Source of the DNA: Candidatus Eiseniibacteriota bacterium
GTDB taxonomy: Bacteria; ARS69
DNA: 64,000 bases
Assembly: GCA_052390515.1 (NCBI GenBank)
Contig: JBQTGV010000005.1
Span: 1 to 64,000, forward strand
Direction: 5' to 3'
Position 1 is the stretch's first letter; every line of letters begins with the position of its first letter. The position numbers and the translations under genes were made by a program. The notes beneath the pieces were generated by a model that did no database searches, was not told where the DNA came from, and saw only the letters and a program-made list of their open reading frames with translations. Shown here in pieces: positions 13,936 through 37,048 of this stretch.

Positions 13936-15263
13936 CGGTAGCCCTCCTTGATTCGTCCCCAGGATCTCGTCTCGACGGAGACCGAGCCGCAGCCCTGACC
14001 GCGGGCGCCGATCGGACCGCAGCCGGCGGAGTTCGCCGGCAGGCAGGGCGAGGTATCGAAGACGGTGAAGTCCCCGAGCGTCGGATCGCAGTACTGCGGA
14101 TCGATCACGCGGTCCGTGGCAGCCATGCTGAATCCGCTCACGTCACCGCCGGCGTTCTGCCAGTAGACGTTGCAGCTTGGCACGACGGTGGCTGTGCTGG
14201 ACCGCCACACCGCCACCGCCCCGATCGAGCCCGTGACCGCATTGTTCTGGAACTGAACCGCTCCAGCCTGGAAAGCGGCCGCCGCGCCCGCCCCGAGCGC
14301 CGTGTTCTGGTGGAACGTGTTGCCGACGGCGGTGCCGGAGCCACCCGTCGAGAGAGCCCCACCACCCCCTCCTCCAAGCGTCGTCCGATTGGTCCAGAAC
14401 ACGCAGTTCTGAACAGTGTACGGCGCCGCGCCGAACGCGTTGATGGCCACTGCACCCCCGGCCGACACGGCCACGTTGTTCTCGAACCAGCAGTTCTCGA
14501 TGGTGACGCCCAGCTCGTACCCGCCGATGGCGATGGCACCGCCGCCTCCCGAGCCGAGCTCGGAGTTGCCGATGAACGCGCTGTTCCGGATCACCGCAAC
14601 ATTCGGAAGGCCCGGAGTGTACGGACCGGCGTTGATGGCGCGCTCGCTGCAGTTGATGAACGTGCAGCCGTCGACCAACAGGTCTGCCTCCAGCTGCGAG
14701 ATGCCCGCGCCTCCCGTCTGGGTGGACAAGTTGCGGAACTCACAGCCGACGACCTCCAGATCGGCGAACGTCACGAGGATTCCGGCCACTGCGAGCTGTG
14801 CTCCGTCCATGTCACGCAGGACACAGTCACGGAAGGTGACTTTCTCCGAGTCGACGATGAACGCACCAGGGCTCCTCACCGGAGCACCGGTGATGGTGAA
14901 GCCTTCCACCACCGTGGTCCCCGACAGAAGCTGCTCGCCGTAGATCACCTGCGGCTGGAAACCGGTGGCCCCCAGCATGTCGATGGTGGTGACCGAGGGT
15001 CCCCCCTCGGAGAGAAGCGTGACGCCATCCGCCAGGAAGGCGCAAGCAGTCTGCGGAGAGCCGAAGACTACCCTGGTCTCGACGTCGCTGTATGTGCCCG
15101 GAGCAACCAACACCGAGTCTCCGGTCACGCTGGCATCCAGCCCAGCCAGGATCGTCGGCTGGTCGGCAGGAACATGAATCACAGCACCCTCGACTCCTGC
15201 GGTCAGGGTCCCAACCGTCCCCGCTGCGGTCCAGAAGCGGCGCACCCAAGGTAGCCACCTCAT
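13932..15263 (-). CDS. Secreted right-handed beta-helix (pectin-lyase fold/Pmp-like) protein with C-terminal SWGxIK tail
   Basis: ATG 15263 coupled to the upstream stop; IHVPADQPTI..GDSVLVAPGTY start; repeated GGAI and CxFxxN motifs; ends DPQYC..SPCLP..C..IGA.G.GC.SVSVETRSWGRIKEGYR. Confidence 0.85.
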   Translation of the reverse strand: MRWLPWVRRFWTAAGTVGTLTAGVEGAVIHVPADQPTILAGLDASVTGDSVLVAPGTYSDVETRVVFGSPQTACAFLADGVTLLSEGGPSVTTIDMLGATGFQPQVIYGEQLLSGTTVVEGFTITGAPVRSPGAFIVDSEKVTFRDCVLRDMDGAQLAVAGILVTFADLEVVGCEFRNLSTQTGGAGISQLEADLLVDGCTFINCSERAINAGPYTPGLPNVAVIRNSAFIGNSELGSGGGGAIAIGGYELGVTIENCWFENNVAVSAGGAVAINAFGAAPYTVQNCVFWTNRTTLGGGGGGALSTGGSGTAVGNTFHQNTALGAGAAAAFQAGAVQFQNNAVTGSIGAVAVWRSSTATVVPSCNVYWQNAGGDVSGFSMAATDRVIDPQYCDPTLGDFTVFDTSPCLPANSAGCGPIGARGQGCGSVSVETRSWGRIKEGYR

Positions 15264-18200
15264 TCGAGCACCGCGATCTTGTGAGTCTGCGCGAACCCCG
15301 GGCCTGTCATCCTCACGAAGTAGACGCCCGAGGACACACGGCCTCCGGACGCATCCCTCAGATTCCACGTCAACTCCCCGGTACCCGCCGAGAGCGGCCC
15401 GTGCAAGAGACCTGCCACATGCCGTCCGCGAACATCGAACACGTCGACCGCGTAGACTCCCTCGTCGCCAGCTGCAATTCCGAACCCGAGCTGAACCGAC
15501 CCTCGTGTGGGATTGGCTGCCAGTGACGCCAGCGACGTGACCGCCGGAGTCCGGTCGACAGCCGTCGTGGCACGCCCGGTGTCTCCGGAGCGGTCGTCCA
15601 GCGGTTGTGACGGGAGCCCGGGGACCGTCCTCCCGACCTGCGGTGCCCCACTCATACGGTGGTAGCTCTTGACGACGTCGCTCGTGTACCTGGGGACGAA
15701 GTCGAAGAGCGTGTAGGTCGGCTTCAGCTTGGGCCGAAGGAGCTGGAAGATGTCGAACTGGCTGCCGTCGATCAGGTGCTCGTCCAGAGGGGACGCGGTG
15801 TACGTGTACCAGTAGCAGTTCTGCGACTCCAGGATGGGACTGCCGGCTTCGACGTAAGTCAGGACGAACTCCACGTTGACGCGCTCGACCATCAAGCCGT
15901 TGTTGCCTCGATCTACCACGGGTGACTCCATGCCCAGTTTCGTCAGGGCTCGATTGTTCGACCGCACCGCTTCGAGGCCCGCGCCGCTCGTCACCTCCAG
16001 CCAGTTCGCGCGGAAGTTCGCGGTCGGCCCGGTCAGCAGGGGATTCGAGTCCCGGCTGATGTCCACCGATCGCAGGGACTGCACCACGTTGTTGCTGTCC
16101 GCCTGGATGTTCTGTGTCTGAACCATCAAGAGGCCAGCGAGGTTGAAGTCCTCCACGTAGTTGCGCACGTACGTGGCGGTCCGGTTGTACGCCGCGTCGG
16201 CGCACACCCACGTGGACGCGACGCCCGTGTGGCTTCCGAGGCCCGCTCCCGTCCCTGGACCCACGATCCAGTTGCCGTCGATGAGGAGATGGTGAGGAGT
16301 CAGAAACGTCACGCCGCAGACGTTCGGGTTCGTCGTGGGCCAGATAATGTCGACGGCCGCGGAAGTCTCCCCCGGAATGACCAGCCCGAACAGGTCGACC
16401 TTGTTGTTGCGGATCGTGGCGTGAACGGCACCGTCGAGGAGAATCCCCGAGCGACCCACGTTGAAAAGGACACTCCCCCCACGCTCGATGGTGTTCGACT
16501 CGATGACCACCCCTTGATTCACCGCCCAGTCCACCCACGCGCCGACCTCCCCGAAGTCATGGATACGTGAGTTCCTGAGAGTGGTGAAGTTGTCAGGCTC
16601 GAAGAAGAAGATGGGGTATTCCGCGTAGCCGATGTCCGCGTACTCGATCACGCTCCCCGCGGCATCAGCATCCAGAAGGAGTCCGCCCCAGGCGTCGCCC
16701 GAGCTCGTCAGGGTCTCCGGACGGAAGTACACCGAGTCGCCGTCGGTCTCGCTCCCGGTCGTGAAGATCCTCCCCTGAGGGACGAGGTCAACCTTGCCGG
16801 CAACTCCGAACGACGTCTCCAGGCTCGGCGACACCGCGTTCGTCGCGACGACGTAGGTGCCTCCCAGAAGGTCCCACTCCCCGTGTTCCTCCTCTACAGA
16901 CCCGCCGCTCCACACGCCCCACGGGAGGAAGGCATCGGAGTTGTCGAGATAGATGTGCTTGGGCGGAGCACCGGCGATGTTCACGAAGTCCACATCGTCG
17001 AGATTCGGTGCGATCAGGTGCGCAACCGTGATCCCGTTCTCCGCGTCACGGATCGTCGCGTTCGAGATCGAGGAGAGCGGCTCCACCGAGCCTACGTACC
17101 CGTATCCCGTCCACTCCGCCCCGATGAGCTCCATGTGGAAGCCGCCCCAGTCCGTGCTCGTCGGCGTAGGACTATCCGAACGGAACGTGATGGGTTCGGG
17201 GATCGTCCCATCGGCGACGAGCTGTCCCCTGACGACGCACTCCGACTTCGGTGACGCCCCGTAGTTCGCCGACCCTGCCGCCGCCGGGCCGAAGCCGAGC
17301 GTCCAGCCGGGCGGGACTGTCAGCGAGTTACCCGTGTCGACCAGGACATCCCGGTCAAAGCTCACGTCGGACACGTTCCCCGTGAACGTGAGGCCCGCCG
17401 CGTTGGCGAGCAGGGTGTTGAGTTGCGCTGTGGTCAGCCCCGCATCCTCCAGAGCCAGCGCACCCCGGGCGTACCGGAACTCAGCGTTCGCCAGGGACGC
17501 GGCATCCAGGTCCCCCATGCGGATGCCGTACCAGTCGCCGGCCGTGGCTGCGGCTACCTCCCCGCCACCCAGGTAGTGCGTGTTCGCCGCGTCGTCGCGC
17601 GAGGAGGTGAAGGTGACCTCGTTGCCAGCCGTCCCGGCCACGACGAGATTCGCGGACGCCGGAACGACGATCTCCACGCGCTGCTGATCGACACCTGCGG
17701 CGAGCAGGTCCTCAGTACTGGCGATCACCGTGGCACCTGCGTTGACCGTGAGCGTACCGCCCGCCGGCACCGCCACGTCCTGCGTCAGCCGGATCTTGCC
17801 GTCCCACTCCATGTCAGAGGGGAGCACGAACGGCTGGTTCGCGGCCGGCGCGTCGTCGTACCTCACGGTCACCTGCATCACGCCGTTCCCACCGCCGGGC
17901 TCGGTCTCCCAGTGGATGTCGTAGAACGTGAGGCCGCTGTACATCGATTGCTCGCGCCGCATCGAGCACATGTTGTGGTCGCGGTACGCCGTCTCACTCG
18001 GATCATTGGGGACGAACCAGTAGACGTCCGTGCTCGGGTTGGTCCACGGCGCGAATACATTGGACACCCCGTTCCCCCAGATCTCCTCAAGGTCCCCAGG
18101 GTAGATCTCGTCCTCACAGGTCATGCAGGACATCTCGTCGAATCCCAGGACCGGGTCCGGCACCCAGGTCAGCGTGTCGACCATCCCCTGGGGCACCTCG

Positions 18201-29930: not shown

Positions 29931-29954
29931 TCCGAGGCGAAAGGAGGGTGAGTC

Positions 29955-30311
29955 ATGCCGCGCTACATGATCCTGATGCACGAGAACGACAACGCCTGGG
30001 AAAGGTTCTCCGCCGAGGAGAAGCAACGTCTGATGGAGCGCTACTTCGCGTGGGCGGACGACCTTCGCCGAGGCGATCATCTGCGGGGGGGCGATCCCCT
30101 GGCCCGCGGCGGGCGCGTCCTGCGCGGCTCCGGCGGCGAGGTCGTGGACGGCCCGTACACGGAGACCAAGGAAGTCATCACCGGTTACTTCCTGATCGAG
30201 GCGAAGGACCTCGGCGAGGCGACGAGGCTCGCCCGCGCATGCCCGGCGCTGCAGCACGGGGAGATGGTGCTCGTCCGCGAGGTAGTCGAGCTCGAGGCCG
30301 GCAAGCACTGA
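29955..30311 (+). CDS. YciI/DGPF-domain protein
   Basis: VVDGPYTETKEVITGYFLIE motif. Confidence 0.92.
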   Translation: MPRYMILMHENDNAWERFSAEEKQRLMERYFAWADDLRRGDHLRGGDPLARGGRVLRGSGGEVVDGPYTETKEVITGYFLIEAKDLGEATRLARACPALQHGEMVLVREVVELEAGKH

Positions 30312-30312
30312 C

Positions 30313-31563
30313 GTGACACGCACCGCGGCGCGCGTGGCCGAGCACACGTTTCGCCACGAGAGCGGGCGGATCGTCGCCGCGCTCACGCGGACGCTGGGCC
30401 CGGCGGGTCTCGAGCTCGCCGAGTCCGCGGTCCAGGAAGCGTTCGTCGCGGCGCTCCGCGTCTGGCCGATGCGCGGGATCCCGGAGCGGCCGGAAGCCTG
30501 GCTCTACCGCGCGGCGAGGAACCGTGCGCTGGACGAGCTGCGCCGCTCGACGCGGGCCGGAGACGCCGAAGGCCGGCTCCTGCGGGAGCTGGAGTCGGCG
30601 GTGGAGCCGGGCGGGGCGCACTTCTCCGGAGAGATCGTCGACGACGAGCTCCGGCTGATGTTCCTGTGCTGCCATCCGCGCCTGCCACGCGCCTCACGCG
30701 TGGCGCTGATGCTGCAGGTCGCGGCCGGGTTCTCCGCACGCGAGATCGCGCGCGCCTTCCGCGTTCCCGAGCCGACGATCGCGCAGCGCATCGTCCGGGC
30801 CAAGCGTGCGCTGCGTGACGCGGACGTGCCCCTCGCGCTTCCGCGGCGGGAGGACGTCGGCGGTCGGCTGGAGGCCGTGCTCGACGCGCTCTACCTCGTG
30901 TTCAACGAGGGCTACACGCTGAGAGACGGCGACGCCGCGGCGCGGATCGAGCTCGCGGAGGAAGCCATCCGCCTCACCCGCCTCGTCCTGGGACATCCGG
31001 CCGGCCGTGAGCCGCACGTGCACGCGCTGCTCTCGCTGCTGCTGCTGCAATCGTCGCGGACGGCAGCCCGGATCGGCGCGGACGGCGCGGCGGTGCCGCT
31101 CGGCGAGCAGGACCGTTCGCGGTGGGATCGGGCGCGGATCGACGAGGGGCTGGATGCGCTGGCGGCCGCCGGGCGGGGGCCCGCGGTCACCGAGTACCAC
31201 CTGCTGGCCGGCATCGCGGCGTGTCATGCAGCGGCCGCGCATCCCGCGTCCACCGACTGGCGCCGCATTCTGGATTGCTACGACGAGCTGGTGGCAAGCG
31301 GCGGCGGCGATCTCGTCCTGCTGAACCGCGCGGTGGCGCTCGGCCGGGCGAACGGCGCAGACGAAGGGCTCGCTGCGCTCGACGAGCTGACCCGGTCCGC
31401 GGCCCTGGCCGGCGAGGCGGCGCTCCCGGCGGCGCGGGCCGACGCGCTGGACCGGCTCGGCCGTAGCGAGGAGGCATGCGCCGAGTGGGCGCGGGCCGCG
31501 GATCTCGCCGGCAGCGAGCCCGAGCGGCGCTACTTCGCGAAGAGGGCCGGCCGCCTGCGGTGA
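30313..31563 (+). CDS. ECF sigma factor, ECF42 group (DUF6596/TPR C-terminal extension)
   Basis: LAESAVQEAF..AL..WP, LRLMFLCCHP, AQRIVRAK, LYLVFNEGY, QDRSRWD; follows the DGPF gene. Confidence 0.92.
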   Translation: MTRTAARVAEHTFRHESGRIVAALTRTLGPAGLELAESAVQEAFVAALRVWPMRGIPERPEAWLYRAARNRALDELRRSTRAGDAEGRLLRELESAVEPGGAHFSGEIVDDELRLMFLCCHPRLPRASRVALMLQVAAGFSAREIARAFRVPEPTIAQRIVRAKRALRDADVPLALPRREDVGGRLEAVLDALYLVFNEGYTLRDGDAAARIELAEEAIRLTRLVLGHPAGREPHVHALLSLLLLQSSRTAARIGADGAAVPLGEQDRSRWDRARIDEGLDALAAAGRGPAVTEYHLLAGIAACHAAAAHPASTDWRRILDCYDELVASGGGDLVLLNRAVALGRANGADEGLAALDELTRSAALAGEAALPAARADALDRLGRSEEACAEWARAADLAGSEPERRYFAKRAGRLR

Positions 31564-33316: not shown

Positions 33317-33568
33317 TCACCCCTCCGCATGCACGTGCTCGAGCGTCCACTGGCACGACCGTGGCTGGAAGCAGATCTCGTAGTACTCGCGCGTGCCGAC
33401 CCCGACGGAGAAGAAGTGCGCACGCTCCTCGCCGGTCCGCTTGATCCACGTTCCGGTGATCTCCGCCACGGTGAAGACGCGGCCGCGCCAGCGGAAGCGG
33501 ATCGGCTGGATCTTCCCCTCCACGAACTTCGAAAGCACCTCGATGGGCTCCTGGACCTTCTCGATCAC
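33317..33568 (-). CDS. DUF6504-like small protein
   Basis: EPIEV..P.RFRWRGRVFTV..I.GTW..YEI..W.LE.V pattern; GGAGGAG RBS before GTG. Confidence 0.72.
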   Translation of the reverse strand: MIEKVQEPIEVLSKFVEGKIQPIRFRWRGRVFTVAEITGTWIKRTGEERAHFFSVGVGTREYYEICFQPRSCQWTLEHVHAEG

Positions 33569-33776
33569 GGATCTCTCCTCCCGGAAGCCTCACGCCGCCG
33601 TCTCCCCGGAGACGGCGGTTCCGCGCCAAGCCCGGCGCGAAGATACCAGACTAATGTCTGGCTCTTCCAGCGCCGAGAGCGGCGAGTCTCGCAAAGAGGA
33701 CACTCGCCGAGGACATGTCCGCATTCGAGGACGGAGCGAGGCGCTGCCTGCGCCAGCTCCAGCGTCGGCTCGATCC

Positions 33777-33848
33777 AGTCAACCGATTGTCTTGAAACGA
33801 CTTGGTATTCCTCGCCGGCATTGGGCGAAGTTCGGCACCACGCTTGCT
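33777..33848 (+). promoter_or_regulatory. Candidate sigma54 -24/-12 promoter with upstream IHF-like site
   Basis: TCGGCAC-CACGC-TTGCT with GG 33834-35 and GC 33846-47 (exact N10 spacing); AGTCAACCGATTG 33777-33789 is one mismatch from WATCAANNNNTTR. Confidence 0.6.
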
Positions 33849-33858
33849 TTGCTTCCGC

Positions 33859-34000
33859 GGCGACGAGGGGCTCGCCTCCTCAGAGGGCCGGTGCTCGGAG
33901 GTGTGCTCGGCTCTACGTGGCGGTTCGGCCCCTCTCTTCGAGAGCGCGGCATTCGCCGCACAGGATCAAGGGGCGGAGTCTTGGCCACTCCGCCCCTTTC
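33859..34000 (+). ncRNA. Candidate small structured RNA, family unknown
   Basis: Lies between the sigma54-like promoter and a strong terminator; several internal hairpins; no credible CDS. Confidence 0.4.
33968..34000. terminator. Rho-independent terminator, possibly bidirectional
   Basis: Perfect 12-bp stem AAGGGGCGGAGT / ACTCCGCCCCTT with 7-nt loop, ending TTTC on +. Confidence 0.8.
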
Positions 34001-34035
34001 ACGTTTCCGCTCCGCGTCATCGATCGACAGCCGTC

Positions 34036-35229
34036 TCAGAAGTACGTCGCGACCCCGAGCTGCAGGGCGGCGTTCGCCGCGGGATTGTTGAAGCGATCGC
34101 GGGTCTCACCGCGCACCCAGGCGAGCTTGAGCGCCGTCTCCGGCACCGGCCGGAAGTTGACGCCCAGCGTGAGACTCCGGGATGAGTCACCGGCGACGTC
34201 GCGGTCGAAGTCGACGACATCAGCGCGCGCGGCCAGCGTGAACCGGGACCCCGGCATCGCAGTGATCCGATCTCGTCCGAACGACTTCGCCGCCTGCAAG
34301 TAGAGTCCGCCCTGTCGGGACGCGAAGACTCCGGCGAGCGCCGGCGGAACGTCGAGTCGCACGATCGCCGCCTCGCCCGAGAGCACGATGCCGAGGACGC
34401 TCGTCTCCGCGTCGAGTGCGCCGACCCCGAGATCCTGGCGCGCCCCGACCTCGAGTCCCTCGACGCGGTAGGTGTTCCACGCTCCGTGATAGCCGGACAC
34501 ACCGACCGCCGCCCGCTCGAAGCTCCACTGGATCCTTCCGACCCACGCCGGCGAGGCGTTCTCGTCCTCGTGGTTCCGCCTGCCTGCGGGAAGCCGCGTT
34601 CCCTCCGCCGAGCTCGTCACGATCCCGTCGTGGTAACCGGTCACTCCGTACGCCTCGTAGGTGAACTGCGAGCCGCCCGGCGCTTCGAACGCCCCGAAGA
34701 GCCCCATGCCGGGCTGCGAAAGCGCCACGCCGAGCAGTTCCGACGCCACCGCGGGCCGACCGGGCAGCTCGTTGCGCGGCGCGTCGTGAGCGAGATTGAA
34801 GCGCCCGAGCGGCAGCAGGACGATCCCCGCGCGGACGCTTGCGGCGCGGTCCAGCGTCAGGTCGACCTGCGCCAGCTCGACGGTGACTTCCTCCCCGCCC
34901 TCCTCGAACTCGAGCTCGCTGAAGATGTGCACCCGCTCGCGGATGTCGGTAGCCACGAGCAGATTCCAGCGCGTGAGCTGCACGCCGAGCGCGCCGGTGG
35001 CGCCTTCCTCGCGCTCCCAGGCTGCGTTCGCCTCGAGGTATCCGCCGACCGAGATGCGCCCGAAGATCCCCTCGAGATACGGCTTGTCGTCGTAGCCGCC
35101 CGGCACGAAGGGCCTCTGCCGCGCGACCGATGTGTCGGCGGCCTGCGCCTCGGCGGCCTGCGCCCGGCAGGACGTCGCCACGAGGGCACCCAGGCAGCCG
35201 ACGATCGCCACCGTCGTGAAGCCGCTCAC
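34036..35229 (-). CDS. Porin-like outer-membrane beta-barrel
   Basis: GTG 35229 overlapping the DHOR stop; signal peptide; VGGYLE, FSELEFE, VRAGIVLLPLGRFNLAH, LGVNFRP, terminal GVATYF. Confidence 0.8.
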   Translation of the reverse strand: MSGFTTVAIVGCLGALVATSCRAQAAEAQAADTSVARQRPFVPGGYDDKPYLEGIFGRISVGGYLEANAAWEREEGATGALGVQLTRWNLLVATDIRERVHIFSELEFEEGGEEVTVELAQVDLTLDRAASVRAGIVLLPLGRFNLAHDAPRNELPGRPAVASELLGVALSQPGMGLFGAFEAPGGSQFTYEAYGVTGYHDGIVTSSAEGTRLPAGRRNHEDENASPAWVGRIQWSFERAAVGVSGYHGAWNTYRVEGLEVGARQDLGVGALDAETSVLGIVLSGEAAIVRLDVPPALAGVFASRQGGLYLQAAKSFGRDRITAMPGSRFTLAARADVVDFDRDVAGDSSRSLTLGVNFRPVPETALKLAWVRGETRDRFNNPAANAALQLGVATYF

Positions 35230-36440
35230 CGGGACTCCACGAAGTCGAGCAGCGCCGCCCGATCCGCCGCCGGAAGCGTGGCGAAGGCGTCGCGAGCCGC
35301 CTGCGCCTCGCCGCCGTGCAGGAGGATGGCCTCTTCGACGCTGCGCGCGCGCCCGTCGTGCAGCAGGAACGCGTCGCCGTCCAGGAACTCGCGCAGGAGG
35401 CGCAGCCCCCAGAGAGGCGTCGTCCGCCATTCGCGCCCGTCCGCGTCTCCGTCGCCCCGATAGTCGGCGAGCCCATCGCCCATGTCGTGCAGGAGCAGGT
35501 CCGAGTAGAGCGTCACGTCCCGGTCGGCCAGCGCCTCCACCGTGCTCGGTCCGGTTCGAAGCGTCGGGACGTGGCAGCTCGCGCAGCCGACGGCGCCGAA
35601 CACGGCCGAGCCCCGCTCGCGCGAGGCGTTCCAGTCTCCCGGTTCCGGCGGTGCGAGCAGACGCAGGTAGTTCACGACGGACAGCACGGTGCTCGCCGGG
35701 ATCTCGGGATCCGCCACACGGTCCGCCGCCTCGGTGGGAATGGAGGCGAGCGGGTTGCGAATCTCGTCCGGCCGGAAGTCGGTCGTGATGCCCATGTCCT
35801 GGTGATAGGCATCGACCGTCTGCTGAAGCAGGCTGGACACCTGAGCCTTGCGACCGAATCGTCCGAGCTCCTGCGCGGAGGCACCCCCCGGCTCGTGCGC
35901 AGGCACGAACGGCGCCGGCGAAACCCAGTTGGGGCGTCCGGAGATGCCGTCGCCATCGGCATCGGCCGGGTCGGCGCGGCTCAGGACGTCGGCCACCGGA
36001 ACCGCCTCGATGAGCCCGACCCCGAACACCGGCGGTGGCAGCCGGCGCGACACTTCCGCGCCCGGCGGAAGAGTCTCGGGCTGGGCTCCCGGAATCGCGC
36101 GATCCTGCACCTGCGGGCCGCCGAGCTCGGGCGAGGGATCGCCTCCGAAGCTGAAGCGCGTCAGCACGTTCTCGATCCGCCCGCGACCGTCTCCGCTGTG
36201 ACACGCGGCACACGAGACGTTGTTGAAGACCGGCCCGAGCCCTTCGTTCACCGCGAACGGCTTGCCGAACTGCTCATCGCCCTCGGCGAAAGCGGCCAGC
36301 TGGTCGGCGGTGAGACCATCGAACGGGGAGTCGAAGAGGTCGCCGGGGTCGGGCTCGCCGGTGATCAGTCCGTCGCAGGCTGCGGCGATGAGCGCGGCCA
36401 GGGAGAAGATCGTCTTGATCCGGCGCCGATTCTTGCGCAT
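35226..36440 (-). CDS. Di-heme oxidoreductase family (DHOR) lipoprotein
   Basis: Lipobox-like IAAAC; GLGPVFN..SCAACH..DGRG, GVGLIEAV, DADGDGISGR, GRFGRKA, CASCH, YSDLLLHDMG, WRTTPLWG, LHDGRA..EAILLHGGE. Confidence 0.92.
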   Translation of the reverse strand: MRKNRRRIKTIFSLAALIAAACDGLITGEPDPGDLFDSPFDGLTADQLAAFAEGDEQFGKPFAVNEGLGPVFNNVSCAACHSGDGRGRIENVLTRFSFGGDPSPELGGPQVQDRAIPGAQPETLPPGAEVSRRLPPPVFGVGLIEAVPVADVLSRADPADADGDGISGRPNWVSPAPFVPAHEPGGASAQELGRFGRKAQVSSLLQQTVDAYHQDMGITTDFRPDEIRNPLASIPTEAADRVADPEIPASTVLSVVNYLRLLAPPEPGDWNASRERGSAVFGAVGCASCHVPTLRTGPSTVEALADRDVTLYSDLLLHDMGDGLADYRGDGDADGREWRTTPLWGLRLLREFLDGDAFLLHDGRARSVEEAILLHGGEAQAARDAFATLPAADRAALLDFVESR

Positions 36441-36498: not shown

Positions 36499-36700
36499 TC
36501 CTACATCGTGCCCGCCGTCCGCCGCCCATCAGCCGACGCGCGCCGGCCATCCGGCCGCCCGTCATCCCACGGCGCACCCCGCCATCCGCCGGTCCTCCCC
36601 GGTCGTATCTCCTTCGGAAACCTCGCAGCCGCGCCGGCGTTGAAGCACCAAGCGCGGCGCACCGTTGCCGGATCGGCGGACCTTGAGGAAAGTGGGGCGC

Positions 36701-37048
36701 ATGAACACCCTCTCCCGACTGCAATCGATCGCTTCCCCGCCCAGGGTGGGCGAACGGCGCCTCTCCCAGGTCGTCCGGGTCATCGTGGACGAGCGAGAGG
36801 GAATCGACCTGCCGAAGATCGCGCTGGCTCCGGGGGACCGTCTCATCGTGCTGAACCGCTCGGGCCGGACGCTTCGGGTCGCGCCGCTGGACTTCTTCGG
36901 GAGCGCGTTCTGCCGCTTCGCCCTGGAACCGGGCGAGGCCACTTCGCCCATGGTCGTTACCGGGCTGTGGTTCCAGGTCGAGTTGCTGGCCGGAGCGGAC
37001 CGGATCTACCCGCTCGACGTCGACCTCGTGCCCAACAACTCGCGCTGA
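36701..37048 (+). CDS. Hypothetical protein (small beta-rich domain)
   Basis: ATG 36701 after GAGGAAAG; protein-like composition; terminator immediately downstream. Confidence 0.6.
   Translation: MNTLSRLQSIASPPRVGERRLSQVVRVIVDEREGIDLPKIALAPGDRLIVLNRSGRTLRVAPLDFFGSAFCRFALEPGEATSPMVVTGLWFQVELLAGADRIYPLDVDLVPNNSR

Follow-up and report, generated by a model that had tools for sequence, protein, structure and literature searches.

A probable sigma-54-driven structured small RNA in an uncultured bacterial lineage and its predicted partner RNA

Introduction

What is encoded in a gap between two minus-strand genes that carries an ordered series of promoter-like and hairpin-forming elements on its plus strand? 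The gap in question (positions 33569-34035, 467 bp) lies in a G+C-rich stretch of 64,000 nucleotides, comprising positions 1 to 64,000 of contig JBQTGV010000005.1 from the Candidatus Eiseniibacteriota assembly GCA_052390515.1, and this whole stretch is referred to as the window in the following. An earlier interpretation that was based on the letters alone, here called the sequence-only reading, had listed an integration host factor (IHF)-like site, a GG-N10-GC element, several internal pairings and a perfect terminator, all of which have been found in their places by direct reading of the DNA, and had proposed that they belong to a structured small RNA (sRNA) transcribed with the help of sigma-54. 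Comparison with related genomes has supported this proposal, and we consider it very likely that the gap is the gene for a structured sRNA, RNA-A, which is driven by a sigma-54 promoter.

RNA-A is a new structured RNA family, and the locus has yielded a covariance model for it. Moreover, the locus gives rise to a specific prediction that is cheap to test, namely that RNA-A and a second conserved candidate sRNA of the same genome, RNA-B, pair with each other over 18-19 nt. The predicted partnership of the two RNAs adds to the interest of the RNA-A family, which is in itself one of a known kind.

A conserved structured RNA on the plus strand

The conservation of the gap has been assessed by BLASTN against 60 other genomes, 11 from the same family and 49 from other families. 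Nine of the 11 same-family genomes match the gap from window position 33787 or 33885 up to 34000 with 72-76% identity, and the 49 genomes of other families have contributed a single weak match of 39 nt elsewhere in the gap, which is probably due to chance. The phylum as sampled is represented by 12 genomes of one family and 8 genera, including the genome of the window (G000), and the covariance model R1 has found exactly one match in each of these 12 genomes, a count that holds at the order, class and phylum level; the matches in G003 and G005 are divergent (54-60 bits). Three additional copies have been obtained from metagenome contigs by the use of a gapped pattern, and these three have been verified by the covariance model with 110-142 bits. 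A 16-nt pattern applied to the genome collection has returned at least 120 matches, mostly by chance, with L066, L127 and L145 being real among the matches listed. The 12 genomes and the three metagenome contigs are the 15 copies to which the counts given below refer. The features of the predicted RNA are as follows.

33859-34003, plus strand: predicted transcript of RNA-A, about 145 nt (covariance-model matches span 33859-34004)
33865-33871, plus strand: 5' strand of helix P1, GAGGGGC, pairing with 33928-33934
33884-33891, plus strand: 5' strand of helix P2, pairing with 33907-33914
33888-33905, plus strand: invariant 18-mer CCGGTGCTCGGAGGTGTG in the region of the apical loop, where GAGG is exposed; the proposed site of pairing with RNA-B
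33907-33914, plus strand: 3' strand of P2, including TCGGCTCT, pairing with 33884-33891
33928-33934, plus strand: 3' strand of P1, GCCCCTC, pairing with 33865-33871
33946-33959, plus strand: hairpin P3 (helix 6), GCGGC/GCCGC
33960-33967, plus strand: conserved single-stranded ACAGGATC
33968-34003, plus strand: intrinsic terminator with a perfect 12-bp stem (33968-33979/33987-33998), a 7-nt loop and a T-containing tail

Folding of the stretch 33859-34003 has given a z-score of -2.6, with one out of 200 shuffled sequences folding equally well. The first comparative structure, counted on a MAFFT alignment of 10 copies, has 88.7% of its cells paired as compared with 47-58% in slid controls, and none of 500 shuffles has reached its covariation score. 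When all 15 copies are aligned by the model R2, the paired fraction amounts to 95.2% of the cells (49-56% in slid controls), double changes are found in 24 of the 38 pairs, and 0 of 500 shuffles match on any of five measures; these R2 figures lean in the structure's favour, as the structure guided the alignment and the copies share recent ancestry as related sequences. Independently, RNAalifold applied to 9 copies that had been aligned with plain MAFFT has arrived at the same helices, which are P1 (GAGGGGY/RCCCCUC), a short P1b, P2 with a weakly paired tip, P3 (GCGGC/GCCGC) and the terminator. A long-range pairing of CCGGUGC with GCACAGG that appeared in the first RNAalifold run has been dropped, as it is invariant and broken in G003 and G005.

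Regarding the individual helices, double changes have been found in five of the eight pairs of helix 1 (P1), in which 99% of the cells are paired, in four of the five pairs of helix 3 (P2) and in all 12 pairs of helix 7, the terminator, whose loop TGGCC (UGGCC in the RNA) is kept in 15 of 15 copies; P3 reads GCGAC/GUCGC in two of the metagenome copies. The invariant segments are the unpaired or weakly paired ones, i.e., the 18-mer CCGGTGCTCGGAGGTGTG (identical in 13 of the 15 copies), UCGAGAG, ACAGGAUC and the terminator loop, and GCACAGG is present in 13 of the 15 copies with G003 and G005 as the exceptions. Over the whole structure G·U combinations exceed A·C combinations by far (66 versus 13 cells), which fixes the RNA on the plus strand.

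The internal pairings of the sequence-only reading have been borne out in part. GCGGC/GCCGC and the perfect 12-bp hairpin, which is conserved together with the RNA, are retained in the comparative model, whereas the remaining pairings have been replaced or have turned out to be specific to one genome: GAGG(GG), previously matched with a local CCTC, pairs instead with the distal CCCCTC at 33928-34, GGGCCG, previously matched with CGGCCC, pairs instead with TCGGCTCT at 33907-14, and both the CTCTC/GAGAG pairing and the duplication of GTGCTCGG are specific to G000. That reading had not recognised the RNA family, and no Rfam 15 family has matched at gathering score anywhere in the window. In E-value mode over the candidate RNA, the best plus-strand match, at 20 bits, falls short of its threshold of 50, so that the Rfam result is consistent with an undescribed RNA. 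A coding function is disfavoured by alignment gaps of 1-4 nt and by the open reading frames (ORFs) of the gap, for which no Pfam match has been obtained.

A probable sigma-54 type promoter with upstream activator sites

Upstream of the conserved RNA, the following elements have been located.

33686-33701: distal activator site for an enhancer-binding protein (EBP), a GTCT-N8-GGAC palindrome centred at about -165 from the predicted start (position weight matrix (PWM) score 14.7)
33717-33732: proximal activator site of the form GTCC-N8-GGAC, spaced from the distal one by about 31 nt (PWM score 18.8, rank 4 in the genome)
33777-33789, plus strand: IHF-like or CAA-N4-TTG element, AGTCAACCGATTG, at about -80
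33833-33848, plus strand: sigma-54 type -24/-12 promoter, CGGCACCACGCTTGCT, with GG at 33834-35 and GC at 33846-47

The sigma-54 consensus is TGGCAC-N5-TTGCW, from which CGGCACCACGCTTGCT deviates by one mismatch. Such one-mismatch matches are not rare in the window, with four observed versus 0.74 expected and one of 100 shuffles reaching four, and the promoter-like motif is therefore weak evidence when taken alone. Its conservation has been found to be complete, since GGC-N8-TTGC, which equals GG-N10-GC, is present in 15 of 15 copies at a constant distance from the RNA, with spacer bases that vary. The predicted start of RNA-A has been placed 12 nt downstream of the C of the -12 element, and a simple promoter scan has detected no sigma-70 promoter in the gap. 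The genome encodes rpoN, as the sequence-only reading required (Sigma54_DBD, 218 bits, contig C161), and 23 Sigma54_activat matches in G000 correspond to about 20 activator genes. The other one-mismatch matches of the window are located at 14178-14193 (plus), 15402-15417 (minus) and 33351-33366 (plus), the last of which is internal to the DUF6504 gene, itself encoded on the opposite strand.

A palindrome of the type GTC[CT]-N8-[AG]GAC is present at about -172 from the model start in 15 of 15 copies, and a second one follows at about -141, approximately three helical turns from the first, in 11 of 15 copies under the strict pattern; one of the four copies lacking it, G008, has an upstream region that ends at the contig edge. 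The consensus of these activator sites is CTGTCCTCGATCGAGGACAG. The IHF consensus is WATCAANNNNTTR, to which AGTCAACCGATTG has one mismatch, a quality equalled by 4 of 200 shuffles, and a CAA-N4-TTG core at -76 to -82 occurs in at least 10 of 15 copies and clearly beats shuffles in G000, G002 and G003 only. Altogether, three checks that the sequence-only reading had named, i.e., the Rfam search, the inspection of the same gap in the relatives and the presence of rpoN, have turned out in its favour, and in the relatives the GG-N10-GC element, activator-type palindromes and plus-strand covariation are all kept.

The exact pattern TGTCCYC-N4-GRGGAC has 1-6 matches per genome in 10 of the 12 genomes, and the reversed pattern has none. 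In five genomes (G000, G009, G011, G006 and G002) a further full palindrome stands 149-161 nt ahead of TGGCAC-N5-CTGC, behind which come a leader that is conserved and then a lipoprotein gene.

C17:5306-6145, minus strand: lipoprotein gene of G000, no Pfam family (locus G000:C17:5306-6352, L221 and L232; matching loci L212, L204, L209 and L210)

As the same palindrome also precedes the lipoprotein promoter in these five genomes, RNA-A appears to be one of at least two promoters under one activator, i.e., a member of a small regulon. In G000, genes for a DegP/HtrA-type protease and a sigma-70-family factor are located downstream of the lipoprotein gene. The RNA-A promoter, its activator sites and this second regulon member provide a way into one of the 20-30 activators that are present per genome. 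The leader of the lipoprotein gene contains a conserved GTCCG...CGGAC hairpin. The top PWM match for the activator site, at C3:54312, has been rejected, as it lies in coding-like sequence with no promoter close by.

A candidate partner RNA

A scan of the genome for the loop sequence of RNA-A has revealed a near-identical copy in a gap of contig C165. When R is admitted at position 16, the 4.27 Mb of the genome contain exactly two copies of the 18-mer, and the site that comes closest after these, with 2 mismatches, is intragenic.

G000:C165:9059-9125, minus strand: RNA-B, candidate sRNA of about 70 nt in the gap between convergent genes (loci L160, L162 and L183)

The C165 gap is conserved in 10 of the 12 genomes and includes an invariant block of 29 nt. 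On the strand opposite to the loop copy, all 10 copies exhibit a sigma-70 type promoter, which consists of TTGACA, a variable N17 spacer and TAnnnT and is followed by the invariant block about 7 nt later. In the predicted RNA-B a 6-bp hairpin, the 8-nt loop of which is CAUACCUC and contains CCUCC, precedes a long G+C-rich hairpin with a UUCG cap; 97.6% of the cells are paired in this structure versus 38-58% in slid controls, and 34 G·U versus 2 A·C combinations have been counted on this strand. The covariance model R3 has yielded one strong match (72-91 bits) in each of 10 of the 12 genomes, and Rfam has returned nothing on either strand of the RNA-B locus.

The first 19-20 nt of RNA-B are complementary to the RNA-A loop at 33888-33905 with one G·U pair. 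In all 10 genomes the longest complementary run reaches 18-20 nt, as compared with runs that average 9-10 nt and peak at 13-18 nt in shuffled versions of RNA-B (300 each). The sum of duplex and opening energies is predicted to be favourable in 10 of 10 genomes (-8.4 to -13.9 kcal/mol), and the GAGG at the tip of RNA-A is predicted to be unpaired, as is the RNA-B loop that contains CCUC. The two genomes in which RNA-B has not been found differ from the others in the RNA-A loop as well: G005 shows a single G to A change that turns the G·U into an A-U pair, so that the duplex would be fully Watson-Crick, and in G003 the flanks of the 18-mer have diverged and CGGAGGUGUG is kept. Blocking of ribosome-binding sites is suggested as the action of RNA-B by its CCUCC loop. 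Weighing the complementarity against the points collected below, we regard the assignment of RNA-B as the main partner of RNA-A as an evenly balanced proposition.

Proposed mechanism

As the best explanation of the whole, to which we would give about the same chance of being right as of being wrong, RNA-A is an sRNA of about 145 nt, driven by sigma-54 and an activator, which would pair with, and probably sequester, the anti-Shine-Dalgarno sRNA RNA-B. An enhancer-binding protein would occupy both GTCC-N8-GGAC palindromes, one at about -165 and the other at about -133, and switch on the sigma-54 polymerase at GG-N10-GC, possibly assisted by a DNA bend at about -80. Transcription would begin near 33859 and end at the intrinsic terminator (33968-34003), and the resulting RNA would consist of a long arm P1-P1b-P2, which presents the Shine-Dalgarno (SD)-like invariant loop at its tip, followed by P3 and the terminator, a fold that is supported by covariation. 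The loop and its flank could then form a duplex of 18-19 bp with the 5' hairpin of RNA-B, in which the first contact would be made loop to loop between GAGG and CCUC and the duplex would spread from there. With an active activator, RNA-A would be a sponge or antagonist that titrates RNA-B, and the action of RNA-B at ribosome-binding sites would be lifted. What the sequence comparison shows is the enhancer-type sigma-54 promoter, the covarying fold with its intrinsic terminator and the unique, conserved complementarity of 18-19 nt to a second small RNA with a promoter of its own, and from this we infer the synthesis of both RNAs, the loop contact with the ensuing duplex, and the sequestration of RNA-B.

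A more elaborate version, which we put forward tentatively and hold to be somewhat more likely wrong than right, is a two-RNA switch. A constitutively made CCUCC-loop RNA would damp strong ribosome-binding sites, and a sigma-54-dependent decoy with an 18-nt target mimic would remove this CCUCC-loop RNA upon a signal that is common to the envelope lipoprotein operon. If the pairing is true, it would represent a case from a non-model phylum in which a transcriptional signal is relayed by destroying or masking an sRNA and not by making one. If the two-RNA switch is true, it would be the first sponge RNA under sigma-54 control and the first riboregulatory circuit described for this uncultured lineage.

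Several observations weigh against the pairing of RNA-A with RNA-B and, in part, against the RNA-A gene itself. A simple terminator scan that relies on a T-run rule has reported no terminator at the gap, which is explained by the weak T tail in G000 (TCACGTTT); the relatives carry tails of the TTTCTTTT type, with the T-run on the plus-strand side. None of the 23 sigma-54 activator matches of the genome is located on the contig of RNA-A, nor has an activator gene been found within about 80 kb of RNA-A in four relatives with long contigs, and the start site and activator of RNA-A, like the strand of RNA-B, are inferred from sequence. RNA-B has no R3 match in G005, a genome that is 73% complete, and in G003, which is 100% complete by markers, the only match has 28 bits and has been rejected for want of a promoter and of complementarity; a BLAST match in G003 is a chance match within coding-like sequence. 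Since RNA-A is kept in these two genomes, pairing with RNA-B cannot be its sole function. Energies of the whole-molecule duplex (RNAduplex) have mostly been no better than those with shuffled RNA-B (z from +0.7 to -3.0), and they have been replaced by run length and opening energies because they are uninformative for such G+C-rich RNAs. In this G+C-rich genome, parts of RNA-A outside the loop also have exact matches of 14-15 nt by chance. Both pairing segments are invariant, and consequently the 10 genomes demonstrate constraint and no covariation between the partners. Finally, genome scans for mRNA targets of RNA-B have given no clear set, and of 64 CGGAGGT[GA]T sites only a handful are located at plausible start codons.

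Alternative explanations

A first alternative, which we hold to be rather unlikely, treats RNA-A as a trans-acting sRNA whose SD-like loop hits CCUCC segments of mRNAs, e.g., in order to free a sequestered ribosome-binding site, or the 3' tail of 16S rRNA, with RNA-B being one of several partners or the regulator of RNA-A. The core CGGAGGT, which is retained in 15 of 15 copies and thus also in G003 with its diverged flanks and no RNA-B found, is in line with such direct targets, as is GGAGGTG, which we take to be the complement of the anti-SD sequence. However, elsewhere in the genome complementarity to the loop covers at most 16 of its 18 bases, and only RNA-B matches the invariance of all 18. 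The 3' end of 16S rRNA is absent from the assembly. A GGATCACCTCCTT string at minus-strand offset 67656 of contig C11 in G000 lies outside any rRNA, and its opposite strand reads like a long extended Shine-Dalgarno sequence. A protein sponge of the CsrB/RsmZ kind, in which CsrA would bind the GGA of the apical loop and that of ACAGGAUC, is considerably less probable still. Both GGA motifs are conserved in unpaired contexts, CsrA is encoded in G000 (69.5 bits), and Hfq has been looked for in vain, which would all suit such a sponge; against this, the conserved GGA sites number only two, the second being lost in G005, and CsrA has been found in 10 of the 12 genomes, with the RNA-A carriers G003 (100% complete) and G006 (92%) being the two where it has not been found. 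Few functional CsrA homologues are moreover predicted for Eisenbacteria, if that is the lineage concerned, in the available part of a 2026 survey (PMC13443453).

The two remaining alternatives assign the conserved sequence to the flanking genes, one of which is the usual co-oriented neighbour of RNA-A.

36665-37048, plus strand: 115-aa gene, no Pfam family

In 8 of 11 neighbourhoods, including that of the divergent G005, the 115-aa gene is on the same strand and starts 135-230 nt past the terminator, so that RNA-A could be read as the cis-acting 5' leader, i.e., an attenuator or riboswitch-like element with a conditional terminator, of an operon that encodes the 115-aa protein, a 540-aa protein and a CCA/HD-type enzyme. 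This reading is improbable in our view, though a little less so than the CsrA sponge. In G000 the 115-aa gene is 2.8 kb off with two opposite-strand genes in between, in G002 and G003 it has not been found within 7 kb of RNA-A, and the terminator stem consists of 12 G+C-rich bp with no conserved alternative pairing seen. The gene also has a promoter-like block of its own (TTGCSG ... GAGRAAGTGG), 35-60 nt before the start, in 8 of 8 aligned copies including that of G000, which makes transcription as a unit of its own more likely than a leader, though some read-through may occur. That there is no RNA gene whatsoever, the promoter-like motif being a chance occurrence and the hairpin merely terminating the convergent minus-strand gene, is the least probable of all and already contradicted by the comparative data. 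The frequency of one-mismatch motifs in the window and the position of the hairpin, 37 nt past the stop codon of the convergent gene, would permit it. Yet in 12 of 12 genomes the promoter motif is accompanied by the palindromes as well as by the fold and the hairpin, irrespective of the downstream gene, which in 8 of the 11 neighbourhoods is co-oriented and not convergent, and the G·U asymmetry as well as the T tails indicate the plus strand. The hairpin thus goes with the RNA and not with the convergent gene, and it is more than the terminator of that gene, the sole role that the sequence-only reading had named as an objection to its own proposal; in G000 it may serve both RNA-A and the convergent gene. 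Downstream of the 115-aa gene, a 540-aa membrane protein and the CCA/HD-type enzyme have been recognised from translations.

Relation to known regulatory RNAs

Bacterial sRNAs that depend on sigma-54 and an enhancer-binding protein include Qrr1-5 (LuxO), GlmY/GlmZ, CrcZ (CbrB), NrsZ (NtrC) and Pxr. RNA-A resembles them in its layout, with activator sites lying upstream of a -24/-12 promoter and with a short structured RNA that ends in an intrinsic terminator. It differs from them in its lineage, which is another and uncultured one, and in that no Rfam 15 family, whichever of these sRNAs are represented there, matches it at gathering score; furthermore, the seeds of the base-pairing members of this group are not SD-like, unlike the loop of RNA-A. 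The CsrB/RsmY/RsmZ group shares with RNA-A a GGA in a hairpin loop and, for some members, transcription from activator-dependent promoters. These RNAs have many GGA sites, though, whereas only two are conserved in RNA-A, and CsrA has not been found in 2 of the 12 carriers of RNA-A. A full-text search for sRNAs of Eisenbacteria has led to work on CsrA, in which no such RNA is described.

With respect to the proposed sequestration, the closest parallels are sponge RNAs. RosA (S345) of Bacillus subtilis is a sponge of RoxS and FsrA, and RsaI of Staphylococcus is a comparable case, according to the available text of PMC8216469. In the same text, RosA is described as neutralising another sRNA by means of G-rich regions, which base-pair with those C-rich regions of the sRNA that target SD sequences, as is predicted for RNA-A. 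The RosA system is described there as needing no Hfq (PMC8216469), and none has been found here. The two differ in their control and architecture, since RosA, as far as that text goes, is under CcpA control and has two G-rich sites (PMC8216469), whereas RNA-A has a sigma-54/enhancer type promoter and a single apical-loop site of 18-19 nt. No sequence or Rfam relationship exists between RosA and RNA-A.

Two more sponges are covered in the available sections of PMC12559287, CrfA of Caulobacter, which acts on SisA-D, and QrrX of Vibrio, which acts on Qrr. In both, as described there, a stress-induced stand-alone sRNA covers the seed of abundant sRNAs, which is similar to the role envisaged for RNA-A (PMC12559287). 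Different from the situation here, where no Hfq has been found, the CrfA and QrrX systems are presented in these sections as Hfq-dependent (PMC12559287). The regulator of the CrfA promoter is given in them as not known (PMC12559287). QrrX, by the same account, targets RNAs that are made by sigma-54 (PMC12559287), whereas here the sigma-54-made RNA-A would itself be the sponge.

Neighbouring genes

The gap is bordered by the following minus-strand genes.

33317-33568, minus strand: DUF6504 gene, 83 aa (Pfam E-value 2.6e-6)
End at 34036, minus strand: ORF on the other flank of the gap, the C-terminal 387 aa of which have no Pfam family

The latter ORF has been listed as one of 725 aa (34036-36213, minus strand) and probably represents two genes. 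A di-haem peroxidase gene (DHOR, PF06537; 35229-36440, minus strand) overlaps its upstream part in another frame, and the remaining 387-aa protein, for which no Pfam family has been found, terminates in ...ATYF. The peroxidase and 387-aa genes are an insertion that separates the sRNA from its usual downstream neighbour.

On the other side of the gap, a palindrome CCAGAC-N4-GTCTGG (33646-33661), which is kept in most relatives, precedes the divergent DUF6504 gene at a distance of about 80 nt. It has been rejected as a control region of the sRNA, as it belongs to the DUF6504 gene, and it is considered a candidate operator of the DNA-damage (LexA-like) type. The sole other copy in the genome, at C36:57945, is placed between the -35 and the -10 region in front of a radical-SAM gene with a CxxxCxxC motif, which is presumably of the SplB/DNA-photolyase type. 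In G002 a DinB-like polymerase gene comes after the DUF6504 gene. Further upstream in the window, at about 29950-31560 on the plus strand, a 119-aa gene is followed by a 425-aa gene, a pair that is also conserved in G004 and whose translations, read by eye, resemble a YCII-like protein and an ECF-type sigma factor.

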